Shown here: piece by piece, positions 9,776 to 63,910 of the stretch
Layout: every line of letters begins with the position of its first letter
Numbering within the stretch: the first letter of the stretch is position 1
DNA from: an uncultured Gammaproteobacteria bacterium
Lineage (GTDB): Bacteria > Patescibacteriota > Patescibacteriia > UBA11705
NCBI GenBank assembly: GCA_964592195.1
Contig: CAZQEI010000005.1
Location: 5,689-69,688, forward strand
Reading direction: 5' to 3'
Length of the DNA: 64,000 bases
Notes under the pieces: generated by a model
The model's input: only the letters and a program-made list of their open reading frames with translations
Told to the model about the DNA's origin: nothing
The model's database searches: none
Program-made: the position numbers and the translations under genes

Positions 9776-9795
9776 CCTGCCTACCGGCAGGCAGG
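9776..9795. repeat. REP-like palindrome, near-perfect copy (cctgcctaccggcaggcagg) embedded in ggcggatcc...ttggcggag hairpin context
   Basis: One mismatch relative to the 20-bp perfect palindrome seen at 14298, 24445, 29132 and 45045. Confidence 0.55.
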
Positions 9796-9828
9796 CGCCT
9801 TTGGCGGAGATTATTGGTGCTTGGTTAT

Positions 9829-11406
9829 TTAAACTAACGGTTGCCCCGTAATATATTTCGGTATCTCCACATTCATTATTTTCAACGCCGTAGCCGTCAC
9901 ATCTGACAACAATCCAACTGGTCGCAATAAACTTAAATCATTACCAATCAATTGTGATTCTGGTGAACTCTTGCCTTGATATTTTTCACCGACGATAATT
10001 AACGGCACTGGATTAGTGGAATGGTCTTTACTGATTTCGCCAGTTTGCAAATTGCGCAATTCTTCGCAGTTACCATGGTCAGAAGTTATAATACAATTAC
10101 CACCTTTGGAAAGAACTAAATCAACTAATTGCCCTAAACAATAGTCTACGGTTTCTACTGCTTTAATACAGGCGGGAATATCACCGGTATGACCAACCAT
10201 GTCAGGATTGGCGTAGTTAACTACAATAAAATCATGTTTTTCTTGCATTAAGGCTTTGTTCAACTTGGAAGTAACTTCCAACGCTGACATCTCCGGTTTA
10301 TCCGCGTAACTAGCTACGCGCGGAGAAGGGATAACATCGCGATCTTCAGCTTTGAAGGCCGCTTCTGCGCCACCATTGAAAAAGAAAGTTACATGCGCGT
10401 ATTTTTCTGTTTCCGCAATGTGATATTGACTCAAACCAACATCACTAACTATTTTGGATAAACAAGTAGAAACCTTTTCCTTGTGCATAGCCACTTCCAC
10501 CGGTAACCCTTCTTCATATTCAGTCATGGTAATCATCTTGATATTGTTAACTTTCTTGCGGTTAAAGCTATCAAATTCATCCAAAACCAAGGCTTTAGTT
10601 AATTGTCGCGCACGATCAGAACGATAGTTCATAAAAATTACCGCATCGCCATCTTCAATAGTGGCCACTGGTTTTCCACCTTCGGTAATAACAACAGGTA
10701 CAAACTCTTCATCAAAAACTTTTTTTGAATATGAGGCTTCTACGGCAGTCACGGCATCGTCAAAAGTTTCATCGCTCGTGCCTTCCACCATGGCTTTGTA
10801 AGTTTTTTCCACACGTTCCCAATGATTATCACGATCCATGGCATAAAATCGACCGGAAACAGTAGCAATTTTCCCTATACCAATCTCTGCTATTTTCTTT
10901 TTCAACGAAGTCATGTATTCTTTACCACCATTAAAAATCGTATCACGACCATCAATAAAGCAATGCAAGAAGACATCCTTAATTTTTTGTTGTTTGGCAA
11001 ATTCCAGCAAAGCATAAGCATGTTCAATAGTGGAGTGCACTTTGCCATCGCTCATCAAACCAATAATATGCAAGCGTGATTTATTTTGGCGCACATGTTC
11101 AGCGGCTGACAAAAACTTTTCATTTTCAAAAAATGCGCCATCATTAATATCTCTATCAATTAATGGTAAATTTTGAAACAAAACTTTACCCACACCCAAA
11201 TTGGTGTGTCCAACTTCAGAATTTCCAATCTCCCCCCAAGACAAACCGACTGATTCACCAGAGGCCAATAAAGTATAAACTGGGTAATTGGAAGCATACT
11301 TATCAAAATTCGGTTTTTTCGCCAGCGAAATACTATTACTATCACAGGGTGGCGCGATCCCAAAGCCATCCAAAACAATTAACACTAAAGGTTTGCGTTG
11401 AGACAT
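9829..11406 (-). CDS. gpmI: 2,3-bisphosphoglycerate-independent phosphoglycerate mutase, paralog 2
   Basis: 525 aa. N-terminal LVLIVLDGFGIAPP...LAKKPNFD and overall colinearity with the adjacent iPGM. Confidence 0.85.
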   Translation of the reverse strand: MSQRKPLVLIVLDGFGIAPPCDSNSISLAKKPNFDKYASNYPVYTLLASGESVGLSWGEIGNSEVGHTNLGVGKVLFQNLPLIDRDINDGAFFENEKFLSAAEHVRQNKSRLHIIGLMSDGKVHSTIEHAYALLEFAKQQKIKDVFLHCFIDGRDTIFNGGKEYMTSLKKKIAEIGIGKIATVSGRFYAMDRDNHWERVEKTYKAMVEGTSDETFDDAVTAVEASYSKKVFDEEFVPVVITEGGKPVATIEDGDAVIFMNYRSDRARQLTKALVLDEFDSFNRKKVNNIKMITMTEYEEGLPVEVAMHKEKVSTCLSKIVSDVGLSQYHIAETEKYAHVTFFFNGGAEAAFKAEDRDVIPSPRVASYADKPEMSALEVTSKLNKALMQEKHDFIVVNYANPDMVGHTGDIPACIKAVETVDYCLGQLVDLVLSKGGNCIITSDHGNCEELRNLQTGEISKDHSTNPVPLIIVGEKYQGKSSPESQLIGNDLSLLRPVGLLSDVTATALKIMNVEIPKYITGQPLV

Positions 11407-11410
11407 ATAG

Positions 11411-14297: not shown

Positions 14298-14317
14298 CCT
14301 GCCTGCCGGCAGGCAGG
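14298..14317. repeat. REP-like 20-bp perfect palindrome CCTGCCTGCCGGCAGGCAGG
   Basis: Exact copy. It is intergenic between eno and the upstream small gene. Confidence 0.7.
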
Positions 14318-20896: not shown

Positions 20897-21036
20897 CGAG
20901 ATTGCCACGCCCCGATGCGGGGCTCGCAAATTAGGTTACTCTTTTGCGAGGAGTGAAACGACGAAGCAATCTCTATGGAAATTAAACCTCTTTTGCGAGG
21001 ATCCCCGATTAAATCGGGGAGACGAAGCAATCTCTA
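20897..21036. repeat. Composite intergenic repeat family R1, copy b (two inverted core modules)
   Basis: gagattgccacgccccgatgcggggctcgcaaa ... tttgcgaggatccccgattaaatcggggagacgaagcaatctct. Confidence 0.6.
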
Positions 21037-23144: not shown

Positions 23145-23186
23145 TTATTATACAAAATTTTACCAACTGTGTAAAACAAAAATGCC

Positions 23187-23308
23187 TACGAATGACGTAT
23201 TTGCTACGCCTGCCCCGCTGTGCGGGGAAACTACATATACATATAGTGAATAACTAAAAGTTCTCAATATCCTAATTCGTAGATACGTAGCTGATTCGTT
23301 ATTGGTAG
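23187..23308. repeat. Composite GTAG-rich intergenic repeat family R2, copy i
   Basis: ctacgaatgacgtatttgctacgc + GC hairpin cctgccccgctgtgcgggg + cgtagatacgtagctgattcgttattggtag. The same architecture recurs at 33100, 44970 (inverted) and 52425. Confidence 0.6.
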
Positions 23309-23371
23309 GAGCCATATATCTTAATTAACAAAAAACAAACCGCCTGCGCGATCTGTCTTAAAGAATGTAAT

Positions 23372-24273: not shown

Positions 24274-24399
24274 CTCACGTCGTCACGAATTATTCGTGAC
24301 TCCCGTAGGGGTTTCCACCCCTACGTTACCCCCAGAATATAGGGGGCATACCCCCTATCACCCCCGGTTCGATTCCAAAGCAGTCATATTTAATTATTC

Positions 24400-24444
24400 T
24401 GGAGCGGATAAGGGGAATTGAACCCCTCTCTCAACCTTGGGAAG
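24400..24444 (-). repeat. tRNA-like remnant, copy 2: T-arm (GGGG-TTCAATT-CCCC), acceptor 3' strand and CCA, plus anticodon-loop-like CTTCCCAAGG
   Basis: It shares the 3' 19 nt with copy 1 and the loop CTTCCCAAG with the downstream tRNA-Gly. The D-arm and 5' acceptor region is replaced by the CCTGCCTGCCGGCAGGCAGG palindrome (24445-24464). Confidence 0.45.
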
Positions 24445-24464
24445 CCTGCCTGCCGGCAGGCAGG
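24445..24464. repeat. REP-like 20-bp perfect palindrome CCTGCCTGCCGGCAGGCAGG
   Basis: Exact copy. Confidence 0.7.
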
Positions 24465-24512: not shown

Positions 24513-24586
24513 TGGAGCGGGGTACGAGAATCGGACTCGCGTCTCTTGCTTGGGAAGCAAGCATACTACCACTGTACTAACCCCGC
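24513..24586 (-). tRNA. tRNA-Gly (anticodon CCC)
   Basis: The minus strand reads GCGGGGT-TA-GTAC-AGTGGTA-GTAT-G-CTTGC-TTCCCAA-GCAAG-AGAC-GCGAG-TCCGATT-CTCGT-ACCCCGC-T-CCA. This gives a 7-bp acceptor, a 5-bp anticodon stem, U33, anticodon CCC, A37 and an encoded CCA. Position 55 is C rather than U, which is unusual. Confidence 0.7.
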
Positions 24587-24695: not shown

Positions 24696-25763
24696 TTATT
24701 CTTTGACAAAATGCATCTTTCTCGTGTCCATATCAACGACCACAGCCATGGGATTCATCAGTTTGGCAAATTCAGGGTACTTATCTTGAATTTTTTCCAC
24801 AGCGAATCTTTGCATAAACAATGCCTTTTCTCGTGCCAACAATGGTTCCACTCCAACAGCATCACGATAAATGGCTGAGCACAAAAGAACAAAATTCTCA
24901 TGAGTAACACGACTGCCTTCCATATTACTTTTAATAATACCAGCCGCTTTTTCAATCGGCTCATCCAGATTTGGACTGAACGGTCCGATGATCAAAGCCA
25001 TGTTCGGCTCATGCAACCAGTCAAAGCCACGACCAACACCAATCACCCATTCTCGATGTTCAGTATCACTCAACGGTCGATTACTCAGTTGCACTTCTTC
25101 AATGTGAGCAATATTACCAACAATCAAAGGCAAGAAATCTTCCAAAATTCTCGACGGCATGTCCGGATACAAACGCTTCAACATCATCCGCAAAGCTTTT
25201 TCGGATTTATCTTCAATTTGAGAAACATCGACAACTTCACCATTTTCACCATTCAAAATTACCGCGTCCAAATCAGTTTCAAAACCAAAGAGCACAGGAT
25301 AGACCACTTGATGTTGACTGCCGAAAACCCGTTCCACTTGTTGCTTCAACTTCCGCGTTTCCGACAATGCCAATTCATAATTATAACCATAACCAGCACA
25401 ACCACGATGAGTATTTCCACGCGAATAGTGATAAGTAACCAAAATCAAACATTTCTTTCCGTTGCTAACCGAATACTTCACCCAATTCATGACATCCAAA
25501 CCAAAGTGCGGCCAACCCATATCAAACTGTCCACCAATGTTGCGCCAAGGTTGAATGATTCCAAGTGGCGTGTTTGTGGCCACGGGAATATGGATTCTGC
25601 CATCCATACATTTAAAAGCCGCGATTTCTGTCGGATGTTTCGCGCGATACAATTCACGTGCCAATCTCGCATCTGGACTGGAAAATTGATCTGAGTGCTT
25701 TTTGTTCAACCTCATCAAATAACGAATCTGTTGTCGACTATTCACGTATCCTCCTTGTCCCAT
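24696..25763 (-). CDS. beta-carbonic-anhydrase-like zinc protein (long form), paralog 1
   Basis: FKCMDGRIH (C-x-D-x-R) and HYSRGNTHRGCAGYGY (H-x-x-C-x-G) resemble the two beta-CA zinc-ligand motifs. The protein is about 355 aa, longer than canonical beta-CA. Confidence 0.4.
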   Translation of the reverse strand: MGQGGYVNSRQQIRYLMRLNKKHSDQFSSPDARLARELYRAKHPTEIAAFKCMDGRIHIPVATNTPLGIIQPWRNIGGQFDMGWPHFGLDVMNWVKYSVSNGKKCLILVTYHYSRGNTHRGCAGYGYNYELALSETRKLKQQVERVFGSQHQVVYPVLFGFETDLDAVILNGENGEVVDVSQIEDKSEKALRMMLKRLYPDMPSRILEDFLPLIVGNIAHIEEVQLSNRPLSDTEHREWVIGVGRGFDWLHEPNMALIIGPFSPNLDEPIEKAAGIIKSNMEGSRVTHENFVLLCSAIYRDAVGVEPLLAREKALFMQRFAVEKIQDKYPEFAKLMNPMAVVVDMDTRKMHFVKE

Positions 25764-25879: not shown

Positions 25880-26968
25880 TTACTCAGTCACAACCGTCAT
25901 TTTACGCGTCACCATATCAACTGTGACCGCCATCGGATTCATTAAATCAACCAATTCTGGGAATTTAACTTTAATAGTTTCAATCGCAAACCGTTTCATA
26001 AATAAAGCTTTTTCCTTCGCCATCAACGGTTCTGAACCGGCGGCATCGCGATAAATTGCAGAACACAACAATGTAAACGATTGATTACCGGTACGACCAG
26101 CTTCCATGTTACTCTTAATAATACCGGCCGCTTTTTCAATTGGCTCAGCCAAGTTCGGACTAAACGGTCCAATAATTAAAGCTGTATTTGGTTCATGTAA
26201 CCAGTCAAAGCCACGACCAACACCAATCATCCATTCTCTATGTTCCGTATCACTCAACGGTCTATTGCTCATTTTTACTTCTTCAATATGCGCAACATTA
26301 CCAACTATTAAAGGTAAAAAATCAGCTAAAATTCTCAATGACATATCTGGGAATAATCGTCGTAACATGCTACGCAAACCTTCCTCAGTTTTATCTTGAA
26401 CTTCTGACAAATCCACCACTTCTCCATTTTCACCATGTAAAATCACCGCATCCAAGTCAGTTTCAAACCCAAATAATATAGGGTAAACAATTTGATGACT
26501 GGAACCATAAACACGTTCAATCTGTTGTTTCAATTTCTTTGTTTCACTCAAGGCTAACTGAGTATCATAGCAATAACCGGCGCAACCTCGGTGTTCGTGA
26601 CCACGAGAATAATGGTAGGTCGCCAAGATTAAACAATCACGACCATTACTAACGGAATATTTAACCCAGTTATTCACATCCATACCAAAATGAGGCCATC
26701 CCATATCAAACTTGCCACCCAAATTTCTCCAAGGTTGAATAATTCCCAATGGAGTATTTGTCGCAATCGGAATATGAATACGACCATCCATACATTTGAA
26801 CGCCGCAATTTCTGTCGGATGTTGGGCGCGATATTTTTCCCGAGCCAAACGAGCACCAGGACTAGAAAAAATATCTGAATGTTCTTTATTTTTTTTCAAT
26901 AAATATTCAATCTGCTCATCTCGAGTGATTGGATCATTATTTTGATTATTATTTAAATCACTTGTCAT
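25880..26968 (-). CDS. beta-carbonic-anhydrase-like zinc protein (long form), paralog 2
   Basis: A tandem paralog (FKCMDGRIH, HYSRGHEHRGCAGYCY), largely colinear with the gene at 24696. Confidence 0.4.
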   Translation of the reverse strand: MTSDLNNNQNNDPITRDEQIEYLLKKNKEHSDIFSSPGARLAREKYRAQHPTEIAAFKCMDGRIHIPIATNTPLGIIQPWRNLGGKFDMGWPHFGMDVNNWVKYSVSNGRDCLILATYHYSRGHEHRGCAGYCYDTQLALSETKKLKQQIERVYGSSHQIVYPILFGFETDLDAVILHGENGEVVDLSEVQDKTEEGLRSMLRRLFPDMSLRILADFLPLIVGNVAHIEEVKMSNRPLSDTEHREWMIGVGRGFDWLHEPNTALIIGPFSPNLAEPIEKAAGIIKSNMEAGRTGNQSFTLLCSAIYRDAAGSEPLMAKEKALFMKRFAIETIKVKFPELVDLMNPMAVTVDMVTRKMTVVTE

Positions 26969-27592: not shown

Positions 27593-27698
27593 ATTCGTAA
27601 TTCGTTATACGATAAACGTGAAACGATATGTAACTGGTAACCCGTAACCTGTAATCCGTAATATCGGTAATATCTGTAACACATCAGTATATCCGTAA

Positions 27699-29131: not shown

Positions 29132-29151
29132 CCTGCCTGCCGGCAGGCAGG
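29132..29151. repeat. REP-like 20-bp perfect palindrome CCTGCCTGCCGGCAGGCAGG followed by cgtag and a second hairpin-rich segment (ggtgtcatccgacacc, ggcatgtcgaatgacatgcc)
   Basis: Exact copy between atpG and atpD. The flanking hairpin block also occurs at 640-690. Confidence 0.7.
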
Positions 29152-29226
29152 CGTAGTATCAGTAGCAGATCCGTAGATCCGTGGTGTCATCCGACACCAC
29201 TGGCATGTCGAATGACATGCCGTAGT

Positions 29227-33087: not shown

Positions 33088-33099
33088 TTATTATTTTTT

Positions 33100-33195
33100 C
33101 TACGAATGACATATTTGCTACGCTTGTCCGCCTCAGGCGGAAAACAACGGATATAATATCGATACGTAGATTCGTAGCTGATTCGTTATTGGTAG
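33100..33195. repeat. Composite GTAG-rich intergenic repeat family R2, copy ii
   Basis: tctacgaatgacatatttgctacgc + GC hairpin ccgcctcaggcgg + cgtagattcgtagctgattcgttattggtag. Confidence 0.6.
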
Positions 33196-33200
33196 CTCAA

Positions 33201-35435: not shown

Positions 35436-35530
35436 ATATCATGGAACATGGAGCATGGAACATGTAACATTCGAAATGGGACATGATCATGCAACAACGA
35501 AATATTAAATTCTAAATCCTAAATTCTTTT

Positions 35531-42453: not shown

Positions 42454-42455
42454 AA

Positions 42456-44930: not shown

Positions 44931-44969
44931 AAAATTAATATTAACAAATATAATTAATTAGGTCTTTTC

Positions 44970-45090
44970 TACCAATAACGAATCAGCTACGAATCTACGT
45001 ATCGAAATATTTCTACATTTCATGAGCTTACATATTCGTAGTTTCCTGCCTGCCGGCAGGCAGGCGTAGCAAATTTGCCATACGTAGAAA
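44970..45090. repeat. Composite GTAG-rich intergenic repeat family R2, copy iii (inverted orientation) with the 20-bp palindrome in the central hairpin slot
   Basis: ctaccaataacgaatcagctacgaatctacgta ... cctgcctgccggcaggcagg (45045-45064) ... gcgtagcaaatttgccatacgtagaaac. Confidence 0.6.
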
Positions 45091-45945: not shown

Positions 45946-45951
45946 GCTTAG

Positions 45952-47508
45952 TTACATGATCGTTTACAATCAATAGCTCTCGTAGAGTCTTTTGACTCCG
46001 AGATGTCTATAACCAACTCCAAGCCCCCACCGAACTATGCACATTGGAGGTGCCGCAGGAATGCGATCGGGGGCAGATGCAGGGTGGACATGCCAAAGTA
46101 TAGGCTCGTAACAAAAACCGCGAGGAGAGAAGCGGTTTGAGCTGAAGCTGTGGACAACCCCACCCTAATTCGTCAAAACTCTCGCTCGAGCCACAAGGTT
46201 CGCGAGATAATTGACTGCTCCTCGTCAGATGAGCCGCAACCAACGGGACTCATGGCGAGGCACGCGCACGTATCTTGGTATGGAGTAAGCACCGCGGTTG
46301 ACCCTGCTGGTAACAGGGTGGTATATAACCGGCGGAAGCGCTACATAGTACAAGAGGTGCGGTGAAATCGAGCCCGATTCGTCGGGATTTCGATACGAGC
46401 TCCTGGAGCCCCCACCCAACAACACACCTGGAGGTGGCGCGTAATGCGTTTGGGGGCAGACAGCGGGTGAGACAGACTTGTCTCGACCAATTGACTACTC
46501 AAAGAAGTGAAAGATCCTCGACGAGAAAGTCTCACCCAAAGTCGTCGATTTCTCTACCGCAAGGTGGAGATCGAAGATACGCTGACTCGGACGATCGCGG
46601 TCCTGTGGCCCTCCCGCCCCTCTGCTGGTGGCAGAGATGGACAATCGTTCGAGCGTACCCCGGCCCTAAGCTCGGCTAACCCTGCGCCTCGCGGTGCACG
46701 GTCAAGCAGCTTCCGTGGCAGTCCTCACGAGGCTCGTTCGGTCGCTCGCTGGAGTCCTCTTCAGGATAAACCAGCCCGCCGCGACTGCGCCCCAGACTTC
46801 CGTCTGTCGGGGCTTACGCCTGTGGGGTTCGCACGCCACGCGAGGTGTCCGGGGATGCGAAGTTGATCGTTCTGCGAAAGTGGAACGTCGACATAGATCA
46901 CCACGCAACTCTCCCAGCAAATCCAGGGAGACTACCCGCCTTGAGTCTTTTGGGCCACGTGTGGACGAGTTAAATCGTCCTGTACAAGCCTCAGTTCGAA
47001 ACTGGCTCTAAGGCGGGCACGAAATTGACCACTCTTCGGAGTGTGTTGATACAGATCATCCGAGGGCTCGCAGCTCACACCCACTCGATGTGGGAGTCAG
47101 CTCTGAGCTCGTCAACGTGAGCACCAACGTCACTGGCGGTTCTTATCCGTCCAGAATCTGGTCAGCCTGAAGTACAAGGGCTGGTTGGAGGAGGGGTTCA
47201 CGGTGATGTCCATGGTGTCCGAACAATCGGACTGACCATATCAGAACGCCACCCATCGTCGCATGCGCAACGATTCATCGAACTCGGACATCCGAGACAC
47301 AGCATGACGCGACGATCGGGCGTTGATCCCCAGTTCACATCTGGTTCAGGCCGCAAACAAAAGCGACTGACCGATAAGCTGGGGACACGAATTCAGCCTT
47401 TGCTGATGGACAAGATGACTTCGGTCGTCGCGTTCTCGCAAAGTGTTGATAGATCTCAAGCTCCGACGTTGAACACCTCACGGTGAACAACGTCGGAGCA
47501 CTTTTTTT
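45952..47508 (+). ncRNA. Candidate large (about 1.55 kb) GC-rich structured non-coding RNA of unknown class, or a non-coding foreign insertion
   Basis: There is an abrupt shift to GC-rich sequence with no frame free of stops. The short ORFs are Arg/Pro/Ser-rich in all six frames. It is bounded by a consensus promoter and an intrinsic terminator, and carries an internal ~65-nt repeat (46024-46090 and 46409-46476). Confidence 0.45.
47461..47508 (+). terminator. Rho-independent terminator
   Basis: An 11-bp stem ctccgacgttg/caacgtcggag with an inner sub-hairpin cacc-tcac-ggtg, followed by cacTTTTTTTaTTT. Confidence 0.7.
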
Positions 47509-47619
47509 ATTTGGTAAGTTGGCCTGCCTGCGTAAGGCAGGTAATTGGTAAAAAAGTAAATTGGTACATGGAATATTAAAAAAACGAGCAAAATGCTCGA
47601 ATTTTTATTATTATTTTAT

Positions 47620-47663
47620 TAGAGATTGCCACGTCGTCCCGATTAATCGGGACTCCTCGCAAA
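47620..47663. repeat. Intergenic repeat family R1, copy d (core module only)
   Basis: agagattgccacgtcgtcccgattaatcgggactcctcgcaaa. Confidence 0.6.
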
Positions 47664-51881: not shown

Positions 51882-51996
51882 ATGCAGTCATTGATCATTG
51901 AACAATGAACATTGATCAACGAAATATTTAAATAATTTATTACTCTTTTCACTTATCTCGCTTATCTCGCTTTCTTGCTTATAAGCTAAAAACTAT

Positions 51997-52425
51997 ATGT
52001 ATCACTTAATCATCATCCCGATCGCAGCGGCGATCATTGCTCAGCTCATTAAACTTATCATTGACGCCAAGAATAAACAATTTTCATGGACAGATTTGAA
52101 TGGTTATGGCGGTATGCCATCTTCTCACACGGCCATGGTGACCAGTTTAGTCGCCAGTATTGGTTACTTTGACGGCATCACAACTTCGGCTTTTGCTGTC
52201 AGTTTAGTTTTAGCCGTTTTAATCATTCGCGACGCGGCTGGATATAGACGACAAATAGGACTGCATGCTAAAATCTTGAATAAACATTTGGAACAATTAC
52301 CAGCTGAACAAAACTTTCAATTTCCTCATTTGCGCGAACGGCTTGGGCATACACCACTAGAAGTGCTCGGCGGGTTAACGGTGGGACTGGTGGTAACGGC
52401 GGTGTATATTATTTTATTTATATAG
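51997..52425 (+). CDS. divergent PAP2 family (DUF212) membrane protein
   Basis: GGMPSSHTAMV and a later HTPLEV. This is one of only two plus-strand features in the window. Confidence 0.65.
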   Translation: MYHLIIIPIAAAIIAQLIKLIIDAKNKQFSWTDLNGYGGMPSSHTAMVTSLVASIGYFDGITTSAFAVSLVLAVLIIRDAAGYRRQIGLHAKILNKHLEQLPAEQNFQFPHLRERLGHTPLEVLGGLTVGLVVTAVYIILFI

Positions 52426-52565
52426 CTACCAATGACAAATCAGCTACGAATCTACGTATTCGATAAACATTTCTAGATTATTCTATTTGTAATTTCGTAG
52501 CAAATACGTTATTCGTAGACTATTACATTCGTAGTTACGTAGCAAATACGTTATTCGTAGCTAAC
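52425..52565. repeat. Composite GTAG-rich intergenic repeat family R2, copy iv
   Basis: ctaccaatgacaaatcagctacgaatctacgtattcg ... two copies of ttcgtagcaaatacgttattcgtag. Confidence 0.6.
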
Positions 52566-52573
52566 TCTTGCAG

Positions 52574-53473
52574 TTACTTTTGACACACAGAACAATAGCT
52601 CGTCCCCCTTTGCGCCACCTTCATCTTTTGAATGGTGGCTTTTTTGCATTTCAAACATTTCAAACCAGCGCGGCCATAAACCTTGAGGAAACGAACAAAG
52701 TTTCCTTTTTCTCCGCGCGCATCCACGTAAGTATTGAATGACGTGCCTCGTTCTTCGATCGCTTTTTTCAAAATTTTAACTATAGCAATATATAACTTTT
52801 TTCTTTCTGCTAATTTTAAACTTTTCACCTTACGATCAGGCATCACTCCAGCCGCAAAGCAACTTTCATCTGCGTAAATATTGCCGATGCCGGCAATTAA
52901 TTCTTGCATCAATAAAACTTTTTTAATTTCCAAATTCGGTTTGCGTTTAAGAATCGAGTTAAAAACTTCCAAAGTAAATTCCGGCACAATCGGCTCCATT
53001 CCAAAACGCAATTTTTCTTTCGTCACTGTTGCTTCATCAGCTAACCGCAAATAACCAAACTTCCGCATATCATTGTAATACAATTTTCCCGCTGAACCGA
53101 AATCTAACAATACTTTATTAAATCGGTCTGGTGTTTGTCGCGATTGACCAATAGGGTGGCCGCCGGTGATAATTTTTCCCCTCGGCGGCACAAACACAAA
53201 TTGACCAGTCATTTTCATATGGGCCAAAACTTTCATTGATTTATCTCCGCCAAAGGCGGATCCGCCTCCGGCGGAGAAATCGAATATTAGCATTTTACCA
53301 ACACGTTCAACGCGATGAAATTTCGCGCCTTGCAAAAACTTAATAAATTTCTCTTTAGTCGGAGAAATTCTTTTTTTAAAATCATCTTTAATTTCAACCT
53401 GCAAAACCTTTTTGCCTTTCAAATACTTTTCCAAATCTCGGCGCACGGTTTCGACTTCGGGTAGTTCGGGCAT
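52574..53473 (-). CDS. mutM: formamidopyrimidine-DNA glycosylase
   Basis: N-terminal MPELPEVETVRR (catalytic Pro2/Glu3) and a C-terminal zinc finger CLKC...CSVCQ. It contains an in-frame GC-palindrome insertion at 53245-53285. Confidence 0.9.
   Translation of the reverse strand: MPELPEVETVRRDLEKYLKGKKVLQVEIKDDFKKRISPTKEKFIKFLQGAKFHRVERVGKMLIFDFSAGGGSAFGGDKSMKVLAHMKMTGQFVFVPPRGKIITGGHPIGQSRQTPDRFNKVLLDFGSAGKLYYNDMRKFGYLRLADEATVTKEKLRFGMEPIVPEFTLEVFNSILKRKPNLEIKKVLLMQELIAGIGNIYADESCFAAGVMPDRKVKSLKLAERKKLYIAIVKILKKAIEERGTSFNTYVDARGEKGNFVRFLKVYGRAGLKCLKCKKATIQKMKVAQRGTSYCSVCQK
53245..53285. repeat. GC-rich palindromic repeat ctccgccaaaggcggatccgcctccggcggag embedded in-frame in mutM
   Basis: It encodes SAGGGSAFGGD. 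The same ggcggatccgcc...ttggcggag element is intergenic at 5158-5190 and 9765-9810. Confidence 0.55.
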
Positions 53474-54997: not shown

Positions 54998-55951
54998 TTA
55001 TTTTTTAAAAGCTATCGTAAAACGAAAACCAGTATGATCATTTCTTGTATTATCTCGAACAACATTAATATTTCCAGCGCCTTCTCGACCACCAACCACA
55101 AGATTTTGCCAAGTATTTAAACCTAAAGTCGAGGTTCTTTCTTCCCCAAGAGTTTGCGTTAAGGCTGGATAAACTTCACACAATTGTCGGAACAATAATG
55201 CTGGCGTTAATATCACATCAAAATCTCGATATTTTAATTTTTTTTCATTCCAGTCATTACAAATCATTTCTTTAATTTTTGCTAATATTATATTCACCTC
55301 ATCAATACATAATTTAAACCGCCCATATCTAGAAGCCGTTGGTGGTAACCCATCACACCAGGTTATTATTGACTCGACTATATCTAGGTTTTTCGAAAGA
55401 CCTTCTTGTGAACCATAATGTTTTTCTTGAAATGTGGTAACCGAGGGTTTTTGAATACTCTCCGTAACAAATAAATCATATTTTTGTGCCAGTTGTTCAG
55501 CTTCTTTTTTCATTATCTCAAAAAACACCTCTGATCCAATTCTATTGCCATCTAATCCAGTCTGTTTCATGCTGGTGCTTCGATAATTCACCAAGCCTTT
55601 CTTTGAATCTTCTTCAGTTTGTTCTACTGGATACATTTTATTAAACCATTCTGCGGTTAATTCTTCGGGATGTATTGGTTCTGAGATAAACGGCTTATTT
55701 TCACCAAAAAATATATCTTCAATCGCTTTTATCTGTTTACCATATTTCATTTCCTTTGGAGAAGAATCTTCAACCGTTTCACCAAATGCCTGGACAAAGC
55801 GCAAAGCTTCCAAGACCTGTTCTGGTTTAGGATTTTTGCCTTGAGACTTTATTCTTTTTGCCAAGTCAAACAAACCCTCGTTGATTTTAATTTGATCATT
55901 GGATTGGGAGGGTGTGAGGTTAGCGGTTAATTTTTCAACGTTATTTAGCAT
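54998..55951 (-). CDS. N-module family protein B1 (type-B C-terminal domain)
   Basis: VEKLTANLTPSQSNDQIKINEGLFDLAKRIKSQGKNPKPEQVLEALRFV, then IKAIEDIFFGENKPF, WFNKMYP, VILTPALLFRQL, REGAGN and a C-terminal GFRFTIAFKK. Confidence 0.55.
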   Translation of the reverse strand: MLNNVEKLTANLTPSQSNDQIKINEGLFDLAKRIKSQGKNPKPEQVLEALRFVQAFGETVEDSSPKEMKYGKQIKAIEDIFFGENKPFISEPIHPEELTAEWFNKMYPVEQTEEDSKKGLVNYRSTSMKQTGLDGNRIGSEVFFEIMKKEAEQLAQKYDLFVTESIQKPSVTTFQEKHYGSQEGLSKNLDIVESIITWCDGLPPTASRYGRFKLCIDEVNIILAKIKEMICNDWNEKKLKYRDFDVILTPALLFRQLCEVYPALTQTLGEERTSTLGLNTWQNLVVGGREGAGNINVVRDNTRNDHTGFRFTIAFKK

Positions 55952-55956
55952 GATAA

Positions 55957-57204
55957 TTAAATTTCACGATTTTTTGTAAAATCTCTTTTTCGATCCTCAA
56001 GCTCATTAATTAAATGCTCCATTTCATAAAATTTAGTATTTGCTGAAATTACAGAACCTAACATCGTGTTCATTCTTGCTGTATGCGCTAATCTTTTCCT
56101 CATCGTTATTAAAATTTTATCAATTTGAATTACTGCATCTTTAATAAAGTCATGCGCTTCTTTCTCTTTATAAAAAACTATTGACAATCTAAAAAACTCA
56201 GCGTGTTTATCATCCATAGTTTTATACCACACTGACCCAGCACCGCCATTCTCCTGATCTTTATCTTCTTCGTAACCAATAAAGCCTCCAATAGTCAAAT
56301 AAGCCTTTTCGTTTTCGATCTTGGTGGAAGTCAAAATTCTATAAATTGATTGCGACAATTCCGGTTTATCCTCCATAATTTGCCTGGTAATTACAGCCGG
56401 CGTGCACATCACGCGAAATGGTGGTATTTTCAAGCCTTGCTCTTTCCACTTTTTTATTAATTCATCTTCTATCTTTTGCACTAATGTCAACCTAACATCA
56501 TCTACACCTAAAAAATATCTGGTTTTATTTTCTCCAAATGCTTCATTAATATAATCATTGATCGGATCAATCACTAATCCACGACGTTTATCATCCTGTT
56601 CAATTGGCATTGCTAATTCCGAATACACCATTTCCCAATCCGACATTTCCGTCACTTCATTTTTCATGGCACGAACAAAGTCATCCATGAAAGTTTTAAC
56701 TAAACAATCTTTGGGTTTATAATTTTTCTTCAACTTCTTTTTAAACCACTCAATCACAGCATATTCTTTTCTTGCAACACTAAGATCAATATTGCAAATA
56801 TGTGGTCGAAAATTCAATCTCCCAGCTTTAACATCTTCATCGCGTTGATGATCTTTATCCACATTGGGAAACATTTTTTCAAACCAAGCATCGTTAATCT
56901 CTTCCGGCTTGGGTGGTAAACAAACGTATGGTTCATCAATGCCGAAAAATTGATCTTGAATCGCCTCAATATATGTTCTAAATTTTTCTTTTGGATCAGC
57001 TTCCTTAGTCAAACTATAAGATTGCTCCACTAACCGCAAAGCTTCCTTTATTCGTTCACTATCCCGAGCACCGCCTTCTTCTCGAATCCTCTTCGCCAAC
57101 GCTCGCATATCTTCATCAACCCGAACCCGCTCCACGGCTTGCGCTGGAGTTTGATTAGCTGTGAGTTTTTCAATATGATTTGGCATTGTAATTATTGCTC
57201 CCAA
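55957..57204 (-). CDS. N-module family protein B2 (type-B)
   Basis: IEKLTANQTPAQAVERVRVDEDMRALAKRIREEGGARDSERIKEALRLVEQ, then WFEKMFP, VMCTPAVITRQI, ENGGAGS and FFRLSIVFYKEK, plus an extra C-terminal tail. Confidence 0.55.
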   Translation of the reverse strand: MGAIITMPNHIEKLTANQTPAQAVERVRVDEDMRALAKRIREEGGARDSERIKEALRLVEQSYSLTKEADPKEKFRTYIEAIQDQFFGIDEPYVCLPPKPEEINDAWFEKMFPNVDKDHQRDEDVKAGRLNFRPHICNIDLSVARKEYAVIEWFKKKLKKNYKPKDCLVKTFMDDFVRAMKNEVTEMSDWEMVYSELAMPIEQDDKRRGLVIDPINDYINEAFGENKTRYFLGVDDVRLTLVQKIEDELIKKWKEQGLKIPPFRVMCTPAVITRQIMEDKPELSQSIYRILTSTKIENEKAYLTIGGFIGYEEDKDQENGGAGSVWYKTMDDKHAEFFRLSIVFYKEKEAHDFIKDAVIQIDKILITMRKRLAHTARMNTMLGSVISANTKFYEMEHLINELEDRKRDFTKNREI

Positions 57205-58352
57205 CTTTTATTTCTATTTTTTGTAATATCTCTAATAGCTTTCCCCCTTAAAATCATATTTTCTAAATTCAAGTATTTCAAATATTGAGGATTTTGATAC
57301 ATATTTGAAATTGATGACAATTTTTTATCATGTTTTTCATGTTTCTTTTTAATTTCATCTATTTGTTTCTCTTCCTCAATTGAAAGTGGTCTATCTTTAT
57401 AAAAAACAATTGAAAGTCTAAACATAGTAAACTGGGGGGCATCCTTAACATTCAAAGTTCCAATTGCCCCAGCCCCGCCAAGATCAACCCCACCAGTAGT
57501 TAACCATTTTGTTGTCTCTTTACCAGACTCATCGAGTAAAGGTGTTTCGCTCAGAACACTAAAATCCAATTTAGACATATTGGGATTTTGTTCCATAAAC
57601 TGCCTAGAAACAGATACTGGAGTTAATAAAACTTGAAAAGCAGGAATTTTAAAACCCGACTTCTTAAATTTTTTCACAATATTATCTTCCATACTTCGCA
57701 AAAGACCATAAAGTTGGATTAATAATCCACCCTTTGCTGCTCTTGCAATTGAAAAAACATTATCGTCAATTTTAATATCCGCATTTGAAATCAAAAGTCT
57801 GCTTGTAAAAACAGATTCACTCTCTTTCAAAAATTCCGCTTCAGCTTTTATCGATCGAAAATATGCTCCCATTACCGAATGTTCTTCAGAAACAGATTTA
57901 CTAGACCTATCAAGTCTAGATAGAAGCTTACTCACTATTCCAAACTTAGCTCGTTTATTTTCCGATGGTGGTCGAAAGCAAATTCTTCCCGCCGTAAGAT
58001 CCTCAGGTCGTTGGTGGTCATTATCCACATCAGGATACATCTTTTCAAACCATTCATCAGTTAAATCTTCAGGTTTTGGAGGAATAGAGAAAAAAGGCTC
58101 CTTATTTCCAAATAATTCTTCCTGAATAACTTCAACATATGGTAAATACTTTTCTCTTGGATCTTCTTCCCTAGTTAAACTATAAGATTGCTCCACTAAC
58201 CGCAAAGCTTCCTTTATTCGTTCACTATCCCGCGCACCGCCTTCTTCTCGAATCCTCTTCGCCAACTCTCTCAAATTTTCATCAATCTGAATCCGCTCCA
58301 CGGCTTTTTCTGGAGACAAATTAGCGGTTAAATTTTCAGCGTGATTTTTCAT
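57192..58352 (-). CDS. N-module family protein B3 (type-B)
   Basis: Its N-module is nearly identical to B2 (ENLTANLSPEKAVERIQIDENLRELAKRIREEGGARDSERIKEALRLVEQSYSLTREEDPREKY). VLLTPVSVSRQF, LGGAGA and FRLSIVFYKDR. Confidence 0.55.
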   Translation of the reverse strand: MKNHAENLTANLSPEKAVERIQIDENLRELAKRIREEGGARDSERIKEALRLVEQSYSLTREEDPREKYLPYVEVIQEELFGNKEPFFSIPPKPEDLTDEWFEKMYPDVDNDHQRPEDLTAGRICFRPPSENKRAKFGIVSKLLSRLDRSSKSVSEEHSVMGAYFRSIKAEAEFLKESESVFTSRLLISNADIKIDDNVFSIARAAKGGLLIQLYGLLRSMEDNIVKKFKKSGFKIPAFQVLLTPVSVSRQFMEQNPNMSKLDFSVLSETPLLDESGKETTKWLTTGGVDLGGAGAIGTLNVKDAPQFTMFRLSIVFYKDRPLSIEEEKQIDEIKKKHEKHDKKLSSISNMYQNPQYLKYLNLENMILRGKAIRDITKNRNKSWEQ

Positions 58353-58366
58353 GTATAAAATTCAAA

Positions 58367-59344
58367 TCAATTCTTGTAAAATATTACAGAGATCCTAAAA
58401 CCAGCGCCTGAAGTGCCCTTATCCATAGTGTCAATATTACCAGCACCACCATTAGGGGTACCGACTACCAAGCATCTTTCAGTTTTATTCCCATCTTTAT
58501 CCAATAAATCTGTAGACGTTGTTTCCCAGAAGCTTGATTTTGTCATCTCTAGATTTTCCCCCATAATTTGTCGTTGAATAATTGCTGGAGTGCAAATTAC
58601 ATCAAACTTCGGAACTTCCAAAAGATTTTCAAGCCACGCTTTTCTTATTTTGGACTTTAACATTCTTAGTAACCTATTATCAATTGTTTCTCGAGAAAGC
58701 ATTGATCGATGGGTAGCGCGAAAATTAGTACAATCTTTAATAAAAGGAACTAAAACATCAGCGTTGCTTGATCCTTGATGATCATGGTCTGGGTCATTTA
58801 ATCCATAATGTTGCAATACACCGGATTTTTTTATTAACGGTTTACCAATTGTTTCAGTCAAAACCAATTCACAGTTGTTCATTTGTCGAGCTTGCGTGCG
58901 GATTGAACGAGCAAAGACACTAAACCAAGTTTCCCCTGGGAATGACTGGCAAATTTCTTCAGCAGGATCAAAAAAATACCTAGGTCTAAAATTTGTAACT
59001 TTACTTTTTGGATCTTGTTCTATCGGATACATTTTTTCAAACCAAGCATCAGTCATTTCATCCACATGAAAAGGAATGGAAACAAAGGGTTTATTTTCAC
59101 CAAACAACAATGGTTCAATAGCCTCAATATGCTTACGATATTTTTCACGAGGATCCGCCTCCACCAATGTTTTTTCATATTCCCCCACCAATCGCAAAGC
59201 CTCCACTACTTGCGCAGGAGTGGCTTTCTTGCCTTGAGCTTTTACTCGACCAGCCAAATCCATCAAACCTTCGTTAACAGTAACTTGATCAATGGCGCGG
59301 GCGGGCGTGGGACTAGCGGTTAATTTTTCAAAAGATGATTTCAT
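58367..59344 (-). CDS. N-module family protein B4 (type-B)
   Basis: FEKLTASPTPARAIDQVTVNEGLMDLAGRVKAQGKKATPAQVVEALRLVGEYE, then VICTPAIIQRQI, NGGAGN and GFRISVIFYKN. Confidence 0.55.
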   Translation of the reverse strand: MKSSFEKLTASPTPARAIDQVTVNEGLMDLAGRVKAQGKKATPAQVVEALRLVGEYEKTLVEADPREKYRKHIEAIEPLLFGENKPFVSIPFHVDEMTDAWFEKMYPIEQDPKSKVTNFRPRYFFDPAEEICQSFPGETWFSVFARSIRTQARQMNNCELVLTETIGKPLIKKSGVLQHYGLNDPDHDHQGSSNADVLVPFIKDCTNFRATHRSMLSRETIDNRLLRMLKSKIRKAWLENLLEVPKFDVICTPAIIQRQIMGENLEMTKSSFWETTSTDLLDKDGNKTERCLVVGTPNGGAGNIDTMDKGTSGAGFRISVIFYKN

Positions 59345-60461: not shown

Positions 60462-60606
60462 ATCTTGGAGATTGGTATTTGATTATTGGGATTTGGGATT
60501 TCCGCTTGGAGAATTATTTTCCCCACACTAAAGCAGTCCAACCCCAGATCCCCGCTCGTAGGCGGGGATGACGGAGTGTGTGGGCAATTGACCTTCACTT
60601 CAAGAA

Positions 60607-62043: not shown

Positions 62044-62092
62044 TACGAATAAGAATTCGTTGATTCGTAGCTAATTTGTTATTAGTAGAGAC
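62044..62092. repeat. GTAG-rich intergenic repeat family R2, short copy v
   Basis: ttacgaataagaattcgttgattcgtagctaatttgttattagtag. Confidence 0.45.
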
Positions 62093-62154
62093 CCATGTTA
62101 TTAATTTAACAAAAAATCCCTCCCTATTTGCATCTTAATTATACCACTAATTTA

Positions 62155-62844
62155 TCAATCAAAGAATTGCAACTGAGAAAAAACGGTGGATAAATCACCA
62201 ACACGACAATCACCAGACAACTCAAATATTTTTTGTTTTTTAACATCAAAGTAAACAATCTTATTCACAGGGCAGCTAACATCACGTCCATTTTCATAAT
62301 TAAAAACAGGATATTCGTTTATCGTTTGAGATGCAAATAATTTACTTATCGCTTCTTCACGTGTCGGTGAAATCGTATTCCAACCGTAATCAAACACCGT
62401 ACACTCATTTAAGTTGCACGGCTCGCCGTTAAACCTCCAACTTTCCAAATACGTGCTTTGGTTACCGGTAAACATTCGCAATTGCGCGGGGGGAGAATTT
62501 TGACCAGTGCGCAATTCAATCGTGCCATCGGCTAACTCTACGACTTGATAATTTTGTGCAGTATTAACTTTCAAACCAAAACCAGCAGGATTATTAACAT
62601 AGGAGAATTCACCGTCAACCACCACAGGTTGCTCAACTTGTTTTTGCTTTACCACCTGTTGCCAGTTTTGCCATTGACTGGTAATTTCCCCTACTTGAGA
62701 TCTTGTTTGCCAAAACATATAACCGAGCAAAATAAAACCACCTACTAGAAAAATTATTATTACCCCCAAAATCAAGGTTAATCGTTGTTTACGTTTATAA
62801 TCATTAATTTGCTTCATACTAAACTGTTCTAACTTTTTTAACAT
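62155..62844 (-). CDS. hypothetical membrane-anchored protein (229 aa)
   Basis: An N-terminal TM helix and Gln/Trp-rich linker. No recognisable family. Confidence 0.3.
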   Translation of the reverse strand: MLKKLEQFSMKQINDYKRKQRLTLILGVIIIFLVGGFILLGYMFWQTRSQVGEITSQWQNWQQVVKQKQVEQPVVVDGEFSYVNNPAGFGLKVNTAQNYQVVELADGTIELRTGQNSPPAQLRMFTGNQSTYLESWRFNGEPCNLNECTVFDYGWNTISPTREEAISKLFASQTINEYPVFNYENGRDVSCPVNKIVYFDVKKQKIFELSGDCRVGDLSTVFSQLQFFD

Positions 62845-63910
62845 CCTCTTTAGCGTGACTCAAGCATCTTTCACCTAGTTCGTTCAATCGAACTATTAAA
62901 GATTTACGTTCACTTTTATATCTTTGATATTCAAAATTGGTTTCCGGTTCATCGCCCTGCGCAAAAGTTTTCTTTATTTCACTGTATTTATAATTATGAG
63001 CAGAAAAATCTTTTTTTATTTGTTCCAGGCGATCAATGTCCTCTGAATAATCAAAATATTCCATTAATGTTTTCAAATAACTAAACAGTAATTCAAACCA
63101 ACGGGTTCTCCATTTATTATTATACGCCGGATCTTCAACATCATAATCCATAGTATTTTCCACATTTAACGGGGAGGTAGAACCAGACATTGCCACCAAT
63201 TTCTTTAATCTTTCCAAAACCACGGGATCTACCGGTTTCTTTTCCATATGCAAATGTGGATCATCGTTGAATGATAAATATTTTTCAACCTGTTTAATCA
63301 GGGCCTGAATTTCGGTTAATTGCGTTTCCGTGGTTTCAGGAATTGGGCCACGTTGCCGATGTTTAATCGGCGACTGGGCAGGATCCAATTGTTGTTCGTC
63401 TTCGAAGGACATATTTTTATGTTTTAATTGCCAATTCAACGGATTGTTTTCAATATAGGCGCGAATTTTATTTAATGATTGTTCATTGCGAATAATGTGA
63501 TCGTAGAATGATTTTTGCCACACGAATTCATTATCACCATTTTCCCGAAAATATTTGGTAACGCCAATTTTAAAACCACGAACAATCGATGAAATGGATT
63601 TTGACCATTTTGTTTGCCATGGTAGGGAACAAACATTTTTGTTCCCTACGTTATGGTCAAAATATAATATTCCATGAATATGATCTGGCATTATAATATG
63701 ATAATCCAATCGACATTCGGGAAAATGTTTTGGTATATCCAACCAACAATCACGCACAAAAATACCATAATCATTTAAAACCATTTCACCATTAACAATA
63801 TTACCAAACCAAAACAATCTATTTTTCGTACAAATCGTTATATAATACCATCCCGCCTGCGAATAATCCCACCCACGCAATCGATTTAATTTTCGATTTT
63901 TCCCCTCCAT
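62819..63910 (-). CDS. REP-associated tyrosine transposase (RAYT)/IS200-like HuH transposase domain protein with long C-terminal extension
   Basis: The N-terminal about 140 aa carries the IS200/Y1 fold signatures GWDYSQAGWYYITICTKNR and the HuH motif MPDHIHGIL. It is followed by an unrelated charged extension of about 220 aa. Confidence 0.6.
   Translation of the reverse strand: MEGKNRKLNRLRGWDYSQAGWYYITICTKNRLFWFGNIVNGEMVLNDYGIFVRDCWLDIPKHFPECRLDYHIIMPDHIHGILYFDHNVGNKNVCSLPWQTKWSKSISSIVRGFKIGVTKYFRENGDNEFVWQKSFYDHIIRNEQSLNKIRAYIENNPLNWQLKHKNMSFEDEQQLDPAQSPIKHRQRGPIPETTETQLTEIQALIKQVEKYLSFNDDPHLHMEKKPVDPVVLERLKKLVAMSGSTSPLNVENTMDYDVEDPAYNNKWRTRWFELLFSYLKTLMEYFDYSEDIDRLEQIKKDFSAHNYKYSEIKKTFAQGDEPETNFEYQRYKSERKSLIVRLNELGERCLSHAKEDVKKVRTV

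Follow-up and report, generated by a model that had tools for sequence, protein, structure and literature searches.

Does a short palindrome that recurs between the genes of a bacterial genome belong to the transposase encoded nearby, or is it an element in its own right? This question is raised by a 64,000-nt stretch of contig CAZQEI010000005.1 from an uncultured Patescibacteria genome (GenBank assembly GCA_964592195.1, positions 5,689 to 69,688), which is referred to here as the window. It holds five copies of a perfectly palindromic 20-mer, CCTGCCTGCCGGCAGGCAGG, hereafter PAL, and one gene for a REP-associated tyrosine transposase (RAYT), and a first-pass annotation had joined the two into a single system of repetitive extragenic palindromic (REP) sequences and their transposase. 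The evidence described below favors a different interpretation, in which PAL is a separate palindromic micro-element of 20 bp with sharp boundaries, of a kind with the 'small dispersed repeats' (SDRs) or REP-like. The probability of this reading is put at roughly 0.55. The genome holds several tiny modules built on GC hairpins, PAL among them, and the cognate hairpin of the RAYT lies inside its own open reading frame (ORF).

PAL in the window

The window has a G+C content of ~37%, and essentially all of its genes lie on the minus strand. It was searched for PAL with up to three mismatches allowed, and 100 dinucleotide shuffles served as the control. Four exact copies and one copy with a single mismatch (PAL', CCTGCCTACCGGCAGGCAGG, G8>A) were found at the positions given in the first-pass annotation (Table 1). 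Beyond these five sites the window contains no further match at three or fewer mismatches, and the shuffles gave none, so that five copies stand against an expectation of zero. Two weaker relatives had also been proposed. The one at 47523-47541 is plausible as a decayed copy, while the site at ~11415 has just a stem of 5 bp, lies at a gene junction and is indistinguishable from chance.

All five copies are intergenic in the ORF table of the window. Each had been described as lying just past the stop codon of a minus-strand gene, which is correct for four of them, at distances of 26-75 nt from a protein gene; the fifth, at 24445, lies behind a tRNA-Gly(CCC) and no protein gene. Nothing is conserved outside the 20 bp among these copies. 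CGTAG, said to follow several of them, stands directly 3' of the copies at 29132 and 45045 and is absent from that place in the other three. The spacers themselves are rich in this word, as had been claimed. The intergenic 12.8% of the window holds 32 of its 67 CGTAG/CTACG words, a ~6-fold enrichment, and all 11 copies of ATTCGTAG are intergenic. The general description of the window as one with REP-like GC palindromes and GTAG-rich intergenic repeats is well supported.

When folded as RNA, PAL forms a hairpin of -16 kcal/mol. There is no T-tail or T-run after any window copy on the minus strand, a terminator scan flagged no copy, and PAL was not found in terminator-like lists. A function as an intrinsic terminator was rejected on these grounds. 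Rfam searches returned no match except tRNA.

Distribution and conservation of PAL

The exact 20-mer was sought in a scan of one genome per GTDB species and was found in at least 119 genome stretches (fetched at 8-20 kb) from ~12 phyla, as judged by record title. By our own estimate, from 596 Gb and 4^20 possible 20-mers, about one match is expected by chance. The hosts are Patescibacteria (many classes), Bacteroidota, Ignavibacteria, Omnitrophota, Planctomycetota, Verrucomicrobia, Elusimicrobia, Thermodesulfovibrionales, Thermodesulfobacteriota/'delta', Bdellovibrionales, 'Gammaproteobacteria' and Chloroflexi; no cyanobacterial record is among the matches listed. Cultured Bacteroidota with PAL include Winogradskyella echinorum (KCTC 22026), Flagellimonas yonaguniensis, Longitalea luteola, Aquiflexum lacus, Agriterribacter humi and Aestuariivivens sediminis. 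Additionally, PAL turned up in 35 viral stretches when IMG/VR was scanned completely, and a single contig of 29.5 kb had as many as six copies. A control 20-mer, taken from the window repeat that is called family E below, had one viral match.

This distribution bears on whether PAL is real. Most matches come from short-read metagenome-assembled genomes (MAGs), and PAL sits at structure-prone places, as might be expected of an adapter, a chimeric junction or another artefact of sequencing or assembly. PAL is also present, however, in cultured isolates and in long-read and complete assemblies, one of them a WWE3 genome that is both complete and curated; the complete genomes with a match include WWE3 MEWB01000001, Flagellimonas NZ_OZ247584 and Cyclobacteriaceae CBDDGZ010000002. 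The copies lie coherently between genes, point variants of PAL recur at orthologous viral loci, and the PAL sequence was found in none of the literature searched. An artefact is therefore extremely improbable.

The unit of conservation is the 20-mer. In IMG/VR, the two arms around any four bases (CCTGCCTG-NNNN-CAGGCAGG) occur 56 times, 42 times with the center CCGG and 9 times with a center one base off CCGG, which indicates that the whole 20-mer is conserved and not the stem alone. The G>A change of PAL' is shared with loci L086 and L087. The flanks show no relationship to one another, except that A is favored at -1 and T at +1. Among 166 instances, 51% of the PAL copies lie inside long stop-to-stop ORFs, compared with 88% of all bases (p 6e-32). 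Clustering of the ORFs from the 119 PAL loci revealed no recurrent neighbor gene, the largest family being present at 6 of the 119, and no transposase gene that recurs near PAL. Two other hairpins of the window, TCCGCCTGAGGCGGA and CCGCCAAAGGCGG, recur in PAL loci of other phyla.

Apparent insertion into other repeats and tRNA genes

A number of PAL contexts look like precise insertions. At 9776, PAL' splits a family-E double hairpin exactly, with GGCGGATC on one side of the 20 nt and CGCCTTTGGCGGAG on the other, and deletion of these 20 nt restores 22/22 bases of the uninterrupted family-E copy at 5163-5184. PAL is also nested within itself, as CCTGCCTGCCG-PAL-GCAGGCAGG, in loci L018 and L042. 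Outer inverted repeats surround PAL more often than expected, with 19 cases of at least 7 bp compared with 4.75 expected and 10 cases of at least 8 bp compared with 1.45. Direct repeats of 7 bp flank PAL in five perfect cases where 0.1 are expected, and in 13 cases where 0.44 are expected if up to one mismatch is allowed. This peak is sharp, and direct repeats of 4-6 bp around PAL show no excess. PAL is located at the unit junctions of short tandem (heptamer) arrays, and the autocorrelation of the PAL flanks and of the window spacers peaks at lags 7/8, a peak that coding DNA lacks.

The flanking repeats raise the possibility that PAL consists of two abutted 10-bp terminal inverted repeats (CCTGCCTGCC and GGCAGGCAGG) of a DDE-type cut-and-paste transposon, and is thus a minimal MITE (miniature inverted-repeat transposable element) or circle junction. 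Such a transposon would duplicate 7 bp of its target, and repeated insertion and excision would build the heptamer arrays. Both the peak of direct repeats at exactly 7 bp and the heptamer periodicity of the PAL flanks agree with this. However, the 7-bp repeat accompanies only ~8% of the otherwise perfect PAL copies, and most of these repeats sit in pre-existing heptamer arrays, where the same signal arises without duplication. Likewise, no transposase gene recurs near PAL, and no longer element bounded by PAL half-sites was seen, every CCTGCCTGCC arm in the window being part of a PAL. Because 92% of the PAL copies lack the 7-bp repeat, target-site duplication is a minor rival, and a very unlikely one.

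Sites at tRNA genes are further contexts of this kind. In L231 (IMG/VR UViG_3300033148_008720, positions 2240-2330), a phage tRNA-Met(CAT) is intact but for PAL in its variable loop, and ARAGORN calls this tRNA both with and without the 20 nt. L208, a contig related to it, shares both the 5' part and PAL but has a deletion of 13 nt just after PAL. In the window, the minus-strand sequence at 24400-24444 resembles the 3' part of a tRNA-Gly(CCC), with the TTCCCAA anticodon loop, T-arm, acceptor strand and CCA; it starts at PAL and has no 5' half. Fragments of tRNAs likewise adjoin PAL in L015, L037, L099, L105 and L238. The idea that PAL is a general 'mini-intron' of tRNAs was dropped, since deletion of PAL followed by ARAGORN restored an intact tRNA only in L231; the call for L030 was poor, and the remaining tRNA-adjacent cases are fragments. 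The copies compared show the gain of PAL as a precise 20-bp unit inside other repeats, and PAL is present in spacers where relatives have none.

These contexts must also be considered for the alternative that PAL is immobile and maintained by selection as a cis-element. It would then serve as a hairpin for RNA 3' ends or RNA stability, or else as the operator of a conserved dimeric DNA-binding protein, and this partner would hold its sequence constant. All window copies lie 26-75 nt past the 3' end of a gene or tRNA on the transcribed strand, the PAL hairpin is stable, and its center is conserved along with the stem, as for a protein site. In contrast, a regulatory site is unexpected in tRNA loops, in a self-nested state, between heptamer units or in a position that splits a hairpin element. 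Moreover, PAL has no terminator tail, no gene family recurs beside it in the 119 loci, and syntenic relatives of the window do without it. An immobile element of this kind seems quite unlikely.

The RAYT gene and its own hairpin

The first-pass annotation had recognized a RAYT-type gene with an HuH domain by its motifs, and both the ORF, of 363 aa, and this assignment were confirmed. NCBIfam REP_Tyr_transpos matches residues 17-161 with E 1.5e-13, a match under the curated cutoff. The score for NCBIfam NF047646 is 50.9 bits (cutoff 80), and Pfam Y1_Tnp matches weakly with 19.7 (cutoff 23). These models are built mainly on other subclasses, so that the sub-cutoff scores lower the certainty of the assignment and leave membership possible. 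The 446 homologues are mostly ~200-230 aa long and, where a name is given at the source, are called RayT, transposase or hypothetical protein; their named hosts include Patescibacteria, Chitinophagaceae, Olivibacter, Desulfosarcina and Spirochaetes. In the family alignment, which has NHIH, the HuH residues are invariant, as is Y152 in YIxNNP. The window protein has DHIH, with D in place of N in the family motif NH[IFV]H, as well as W131-Q132 and Y152-IENNP. When compared with the PDB, the family profile has a single significant match, TnpA_REP (4ER8, E 2.8e-5). The same structure is the top Foldseek match (E 5.5e-7, root-mean-square deviation 4.0 Å) of an AlphaFold2 model of the window protein with a predicted local distance difference test score of 84, while the next matches, the TnpA of IS608, ISDra2 and IS200, deviate by roughly 7-14 Å.

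The gene also contains a REP. The perfect hairpin at 63622-63649 has GTAG and CTAC feet, its arms are GTAGGGAACAAA and TTTGTTCCCTAC (core written GTAGGGAAC...GTTCCCTAC), and the peptide that it encodes falls in the one internal loop that the model predicts with low confidence. In 71 of 80 RAYT relatives from metagenomes (L120-L199), the equivalent place also holds a perfect hairpin (8 bp or more). In these hairpins the GTAG/CTAC feet are conserved and the upper stems vary freely, and many of the relatives have a second copy just outside the gene. The window itself has two GTAG...CTAC double-foot hairpins where 0.04 are expected. Quentin et al. described the same arrangement, with double-foot REPs (5' GT[AG]G, 3' C[TC]AC) inserted in frame within the tnpA_REP gene, and listed NH[IFV]H, WQ and YIxNNP as the motifs of subclass 2.4 (Quentin et al., 2018, PMC6006769, Table 1).

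Based on the NCBIfam match, the WQ and YIxNNP motifs, the profile and fold matches to 4ER8 and the REP inside the gene, the HuH gene is a genuine TnpA_REP/RAYT that fits subclass 2.4 (RAYT group 4), a type already described. It shares DHIH, WQ, YIENNP and the in-gene double-foot REP with that subclass (PMC6006769). It differs in its Patescibacterium host, in having only two double-foot REPs per 64 kb and in a unique C-terminal extension of ~200 aa (62819-63400), which none of the 446 homologues shares and for which no Pfam or NCBIfam match was found. An IS200/IS605 insertion sequence was rejected for the HuH gene, which is present in a single copy in the window with no flanking hairpins and no tnpB, and whose profile and fold favor TnpA_REP.

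Does PAL belong to the RAYT?

The proposal that the RAYT at 62819-63910 recognizes PAL as a single-stranded DNA hairpin and spreads it as the REP of this lineage has several points in its favor. A bona fide TnpA_REP-type gene is present in the window, and PAL is short, GC-rich, palindromic and extragenic, as REPs are. Two of the window copies abut CGTAG, one has GTAG 3 nt upstream, and one lies within a composite element whose arms bear GTAG/CTAC words. The RAYT family and PAL both occur in Patescibacteria and Bacteroidota, and in one RAYT relative, L141, PAL lies 780 nt upstream.

The properties of known REP systems argue against this proposal. RAYT genes are flanked by their own REPs or by REPINs (REP doublets that form hairpins) (PMC5581495). 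The window gene has neither extragenic flanks nor flanking REPs, because its ORF directly adjoins the gene upstream and overlaps with that downstream, and there is no PAL within 17.7 kb of it in the window. The foot of a REP hairpin also bears an unpaired tag, GT[AG]G (or CGTC), that is conserved (PMC3733652; PMC6006769). A GT[AG]G foot lies within 0-3 nt of PAL in 8 of 163 instances outside the window, where 6.3 are expected, and in the window it has the canonical geometry at one of the five copies and the inverted geometry at two. PAL therefore has no conserved GTAG-like flank, a result that the first-pass annotation had itself named as one that would undermine the link, and the hairpin of the RAYT family is instead the double-foot REP in the ORF of 71 of the 80 relatives, a feature of subclass 2.4 (PMC6006769).

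Moreover, PAL and the RAYT rarely meet. The 598 kb around the 80 RAYT relatives contain a single PAL, that of L141, which is separated from the gene by another ORF. Conversely, no subclass 2.4 gene was detected by tblastn and profile searches in 1.17 Mb around 154 PAL stretches (genome and viral), and 839 kb of PAL genome loci contain no double-foot REP, which is a weak proxy for a RAYT because group 4 REPs are low-copy. Finally, the identity of PAL across ~12 phyla is unlike REP families, which are lineage-specific and co-evolve with vertically inherited RAYTs (PMC5581495). On this evidence, PAL is unlikely to be the REP of the window's RAYT. By profile and fold, the HuH protein groups with TnpA_REP and not with ordinary IS200 TnpA, and it carries a different hairpin of its own. 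An HuH enzyme is a candidate mobiliser of PAL that no test here implicates.

A class-1 partner was also considered. Two Bacteroidota MAGs have an IS200-like Y1 transposase gene at a distance of 1.5-3.5 kb from PAL (L008, 1213-1671, and L052, 3582-4046), and the L008 gene has the YIKNQEQHH motif of subclass 1.2. Two such tnpA genes in 154 stretches are about what chance would give, and this candidate was rejected.

Repeat landscape of the window

The best homologues of the window's enolase are from Patescibacteria (72-80% identity), and the named ones belong to Candidatus Falkowbacteria and Kuenenbacteria. The syntenic relatives L200-L206 retain the gene order pgk, eno, gpmI, gpmI, fpg … rsmI-like, metG. 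In the syntenic region of these closest relatives no PAL-like sequence was found, GC hairpins are very few, and the spacers of the Falkowbacteria-like relatives are short and plain. Between the rsmI-like gene and metG, L203 and L204 have a plain, AT-rich spacer of 52 nt, whereas that of the window measures 160 nt, ~125 nt of which are the PAL-bearing element. Because this spacer is plain in L203 and L204, the repeat load is a lineage-specific gain, and the view that such a load is unusual for a reduced genome was borne out. In this Falkowbacteria-like Patescibacteria genome, the spacers and also one ORF have been colonized by hairpin modules, arrays of 7-8-nt words and ~125-nt REPIN/MITE-like composites.

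Alignment of the four composites (~100-150 nt, in both orientations) shows that they have the left arm CTACCAATAACGAATCAGCTACGAATCTACGTAT, of 33 nt, and the right arm CGTAGCAAATAYGYCATTCGTAG, of 23 nt, in common. Between the arms lie GTAGTTT and an interchangeable GC hairpin, which is PAL, CCCCGCacagCGGGG or CCGCCtgaGGCGG. The arms are rich in CTACG/CGTAG and pair in folds of single-stranded DNA (z -2.4 to -4.5, the lowest value being that of the copy at 44966-45090), and this family is the source of most of the ATTCGTAG / GCTACGAAT words flagged in the first-pass annotation. Composites stand immediately upstream of promoter-like sites of the next gene (e.g., 23175-23147 and 44975-44947).

The double hairpin of family E occurs between genes and also in frame within fpg, where it adds 10 aa (SAGGGSAFGG) to the N-terminal domain of Fpg/MutM. 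The insert is missing from three orthologues (46-70% identity), which provides direct evidence that 30-nt modules of this kind insert.

Other repeats accompany these elements. An adjacent pair of 8-bp hairpins, GTsGTGTCatccGACACsAC and GGCATGTCgaatGACATGCC, is present twice, at 639-679 and 29181-29221, with a compensatory C-G to G-C change and CTACG words on both sides (minus strand); the second pair lies 30 nt from the PAL at 29132. A ~50-nt element, TTGCGAGGA-[small hairpin]-GACGAAGCAATCT(CT), is found at 551-601, 20985-21035 (inverted), 35606-35662 and 47612-47660, as well as in a Chitinophagaceae MAG (L008, ~3233-3275) and a PVC-group (Planctomycetes-Verrucomicrobia-Chlamydiae) MAG (L049, ~920-980), in the latter of which PAL itself serves as the inner hairpin. 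Words of 7-8 nt (ttacggg/ttaccag, catgttc, tcaatga, cccaaat, ggaattt/gtaattt) form imperfect tandem arrays in spacers at 27593-27698, 35436-35480, 51882-51925, 60462-60500, 3880-3925 and elsewhere. Arrays in the same style flank PAL in other phyla and in viral contigs.

Three further features of the window are of a different nature. A 1.5-kb block at ~45950-47500 has 54-66% G+C in a genome of 37% and contains no ORF. Rfam gave no match to it, it bears no signature motifs of rRNA, and BLAST against phages, plasmids and the fetched loci was negative. L203 and L204 do not have it in their syntenic region. It may represent a large non-coding RNA or foreign DNA in decay. Paralogous genes that lack a Pfam domain form three tandem arrays, of 4-5 genes each, at 3961-9640, 38704-43361 and 54998-59344. 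The conserved N-terminal coding ends of these genes appear as the direct repeats D1-D3, D10 and D12-D14, and one array occupies the place where the relatives have fpg straight after gpmI. The tandem paralogues at 24696-25763 and 25880-26968 share 73-80% DNA identity over three 300-nt stretches and weakly match the catalytic domain of carboxysome-shell carbonic anhydrase (E ~7e-6), which is unexpected in a Patescibacterium.

Table 1. Positions of PAL, the RAYT gene and associated repeats in the window (strand as assigned;. = none).
Feature	Position	Strand	Remarks
PAL'	9776-9795	.	33 nt after gpmI stop (9829); exact 20-bp insert in family-E double hairpin
PAL	14298-14317	.	75 nt after stop of SpoIIAA-like gene (14393), 23 nt before enolase start codon
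PAL	24445-24464	.	Adjoins tRNA-Gly(CCC)-like 3' fragment 24400-24444 (minus); 48 nt downstream of intact tRNA-Gly(CCC) 24513-24586
PAL	29132-29151	.	atpG-atpD spacer, 75 nt after atpG stop (29227); followed by CGTAG words and double hairpin 29181-29221
PAL	45045-45064	.	26 nt after stop of rsmI-like gene (45091); central hairpin of composite 44966-45090
Possible decayed PAL, CCTGCCTGCGTAAGGCAGG	47523-47541	.	Left arm intact over 9 nt, right arm over 7 nt; reads CCTGCCTGC-GTA-AGGCAGG
TnpA_REP/RAYT, subclass 2.4 (RAYT group 4)	62819-63910	-	363 aa; HuH domain ~17-165
Double-foot REP GTAGGGAACAAAcattTTTGTTCCCTAC	63622-63649	.	Perfect hairpin inside RAYT ORF, 12-bp stem, GTAG...CTAC; encodes VGNKNVCSL
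Other GTAG...CTAC-footed hairpin CGTAGGGGTttccACCCCTACG	24304-24325	.	Only one in window besides 63622-63649
Composite, REPIN/MITE-like	44966-45090	+	Arm CTACCAATAACGAATCAGCTACGAATCTACGTAT, spacer, GTAGTTT, GC hairpin (PAL), arm CGTAGCAAATTTGCCATACGTAG; fills rsmI-like/metG spacer
Composite copy	33095-33197	-	Central hairpin CCGCCtgaGGCGG
Composite copy	23184-23310	-	Central hairpin CCCCGCacagCGGGG
Composite copy	52424-52573	+	Right arm duplicated, GC hairpin absent
Family-E double hairpin TCCGCCtgaGGCGGA-TCCGCCtttGGCGGA	5156-5186	.	Uninterrupted; intergenic
Family-E double hairpin in fpg	53245-53278	.	30-nt TCCGCCggaGGCGGA plus TCCGCCtttGGCGGA, in frame; fpg 52574-53473 (minus)

How PAL may spread, and what weighs against it

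If PAL is a micro-element of the SDR or REP-like kind, an existing copy would be copied and inserted into single-stranded DNA or RNA, preferably at hairpin loops, tRNA loops and the junctions of heptamer arrays. The catalyst would be some trans-acting activity. Once in place, PAL would be transcribed in the 3' or intercistronic regions of the all-minus-strand operons. Its RNA hairpin has no U-tail, and a role as a 3'-end barrier or processing site, as for REPs, would be more probable than one as a terminator.

Several points weigh against this interpretation. The outer stem or the 7-bp flanking repeat accompanies only ~10-15% of the PAL copies, which makes the target preference no more than a tendency. 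Mobility is inferred from paralogous repeats and from orthologues of 70-80% identity, and no transposition intermediate, strain-level empty site or enzyme was observed in the stretches compared. Most of the 8-kb stretches hold a single PAL. The exact conservation across phyla could reflect binding by a conserved protein. As PAL and the RAYT family overlap in host phyla, mobilization in trans by a RAYT may occur.

A bolder version of the same interpretation is possible, though doubtful. PAL might be a trans-phylum 'nano-element', in which the 20-bp palindrome itself is mobile. Some activity of hosts or phages that is widely conserved would copy it into loops of single-stranded DNA or RNA (tips of hairpins, tRNA loops, junctions of arrays), phages would bring it from one phylum to another, and its recurrent gain and loss would contribute to the heptamer arrays that many environmental bacteria have. 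If this were true, PAL would be among the smallest known mobile units.

Should the 20-mer move as a unit, very small mobile elements, which have been documented essentially in Nostocaceae, would extend to Patescibacteria, Bacteroidota, the PVC group and phages. The mechanistic question would then be by what activity a palindrome of exactly 20 nt is copied into loops in different phyla. The cultured Bacteroidota carriers, the defined sequence and the contrast of filled and empty sites offer a tractable entry point. The window also demonstrates that a 'streamlined' genome of the Candidate Phyla Radiation can carry a heavy load of micro-repeats, even within fpg and the RAYT gene. These inserts matter for annotation because they result in spurious peptides and split tRNAs. 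The pairing of any palindrome with any nearby RAYT is tempting and unsupported, and it is corrected here for PAL.

Comparison with known systems

Some spacer repeats and palindromes resemble those of the window in part. Bacterial interspersed mosaic elements (BIMEs) and the short tandemly repeated repetitive (STRR) heptamer arrays of cyanobacteria are known repeats of spacers. The window spacers are similarly mosaics of hairpin units and short conserved motifs, with word arrays of period 7-8 nt, but the motifs and the phyla differ. The Rickettsia palindromic elements and the GC clusters of yeast mitochondria are GC-rich palindromes that have invaded AT-rich genomes, including by in-frame insertion into ORFs. 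The family-E insert in fpg is comparable. In contrast, those elements are 30-150 bp long and specific to a lineage or organelle.

The REP/REPIN-RAYT systems, such as TnpA_REP of E. coli (4ER8) and the REPINs of Pseudomonas, provide a second comparison (PMC2817692; PMC3116915; PMC5581495). PAL resembles REPs in its shortness, its GC-rich palindromic sequence and its extragenic position downstream of genes. The same genome also has a RAYT gene, and the composites fold like REPIN doublets. However, PAL lacks the GTAG or CGTC tag, is a singlet, does not flank the RAYT and is not specific to a lineage.

The third comparison is with the cyanobacterial repeats SDR1-8. These are reportedly hairpin-forming sequences of 21-27 nt that were proposed as the smallest mobile elements. 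They are said to occur in tandem heptamers and minitransposons and to be self-nested, with precise insertion and no obvious transposase. PAL is similar in its length of ~20 nt, its diverse contexts and its sharp boundaries. It is likewise embedded in heptamer arrays and in a composite, minitransposon-like element, and nested within PAL in L018 and L042. PAL differs from the SDRs in being a perfect palindrome of 20 nt. It is also found in Patescibacteria, Bacteroidota, the PVC group, other phyla and viral contigs, with an identical sequence common to several phyla, while the SDRs are reported to be confined to Nostocaceae. According to PMC5861425, no SDR-like repeat was found outside that family. 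PMC5861425 and PMC3116915 both cite the SDR study (Elhai et al., 2008, Genome Res 18:1484), and PMC4692102 reports that heptameric repeats are abundant. Overall, PAL is REP-like by description, and the closest analogue of its apparent behavior would be the cyanobacterial SDRs.

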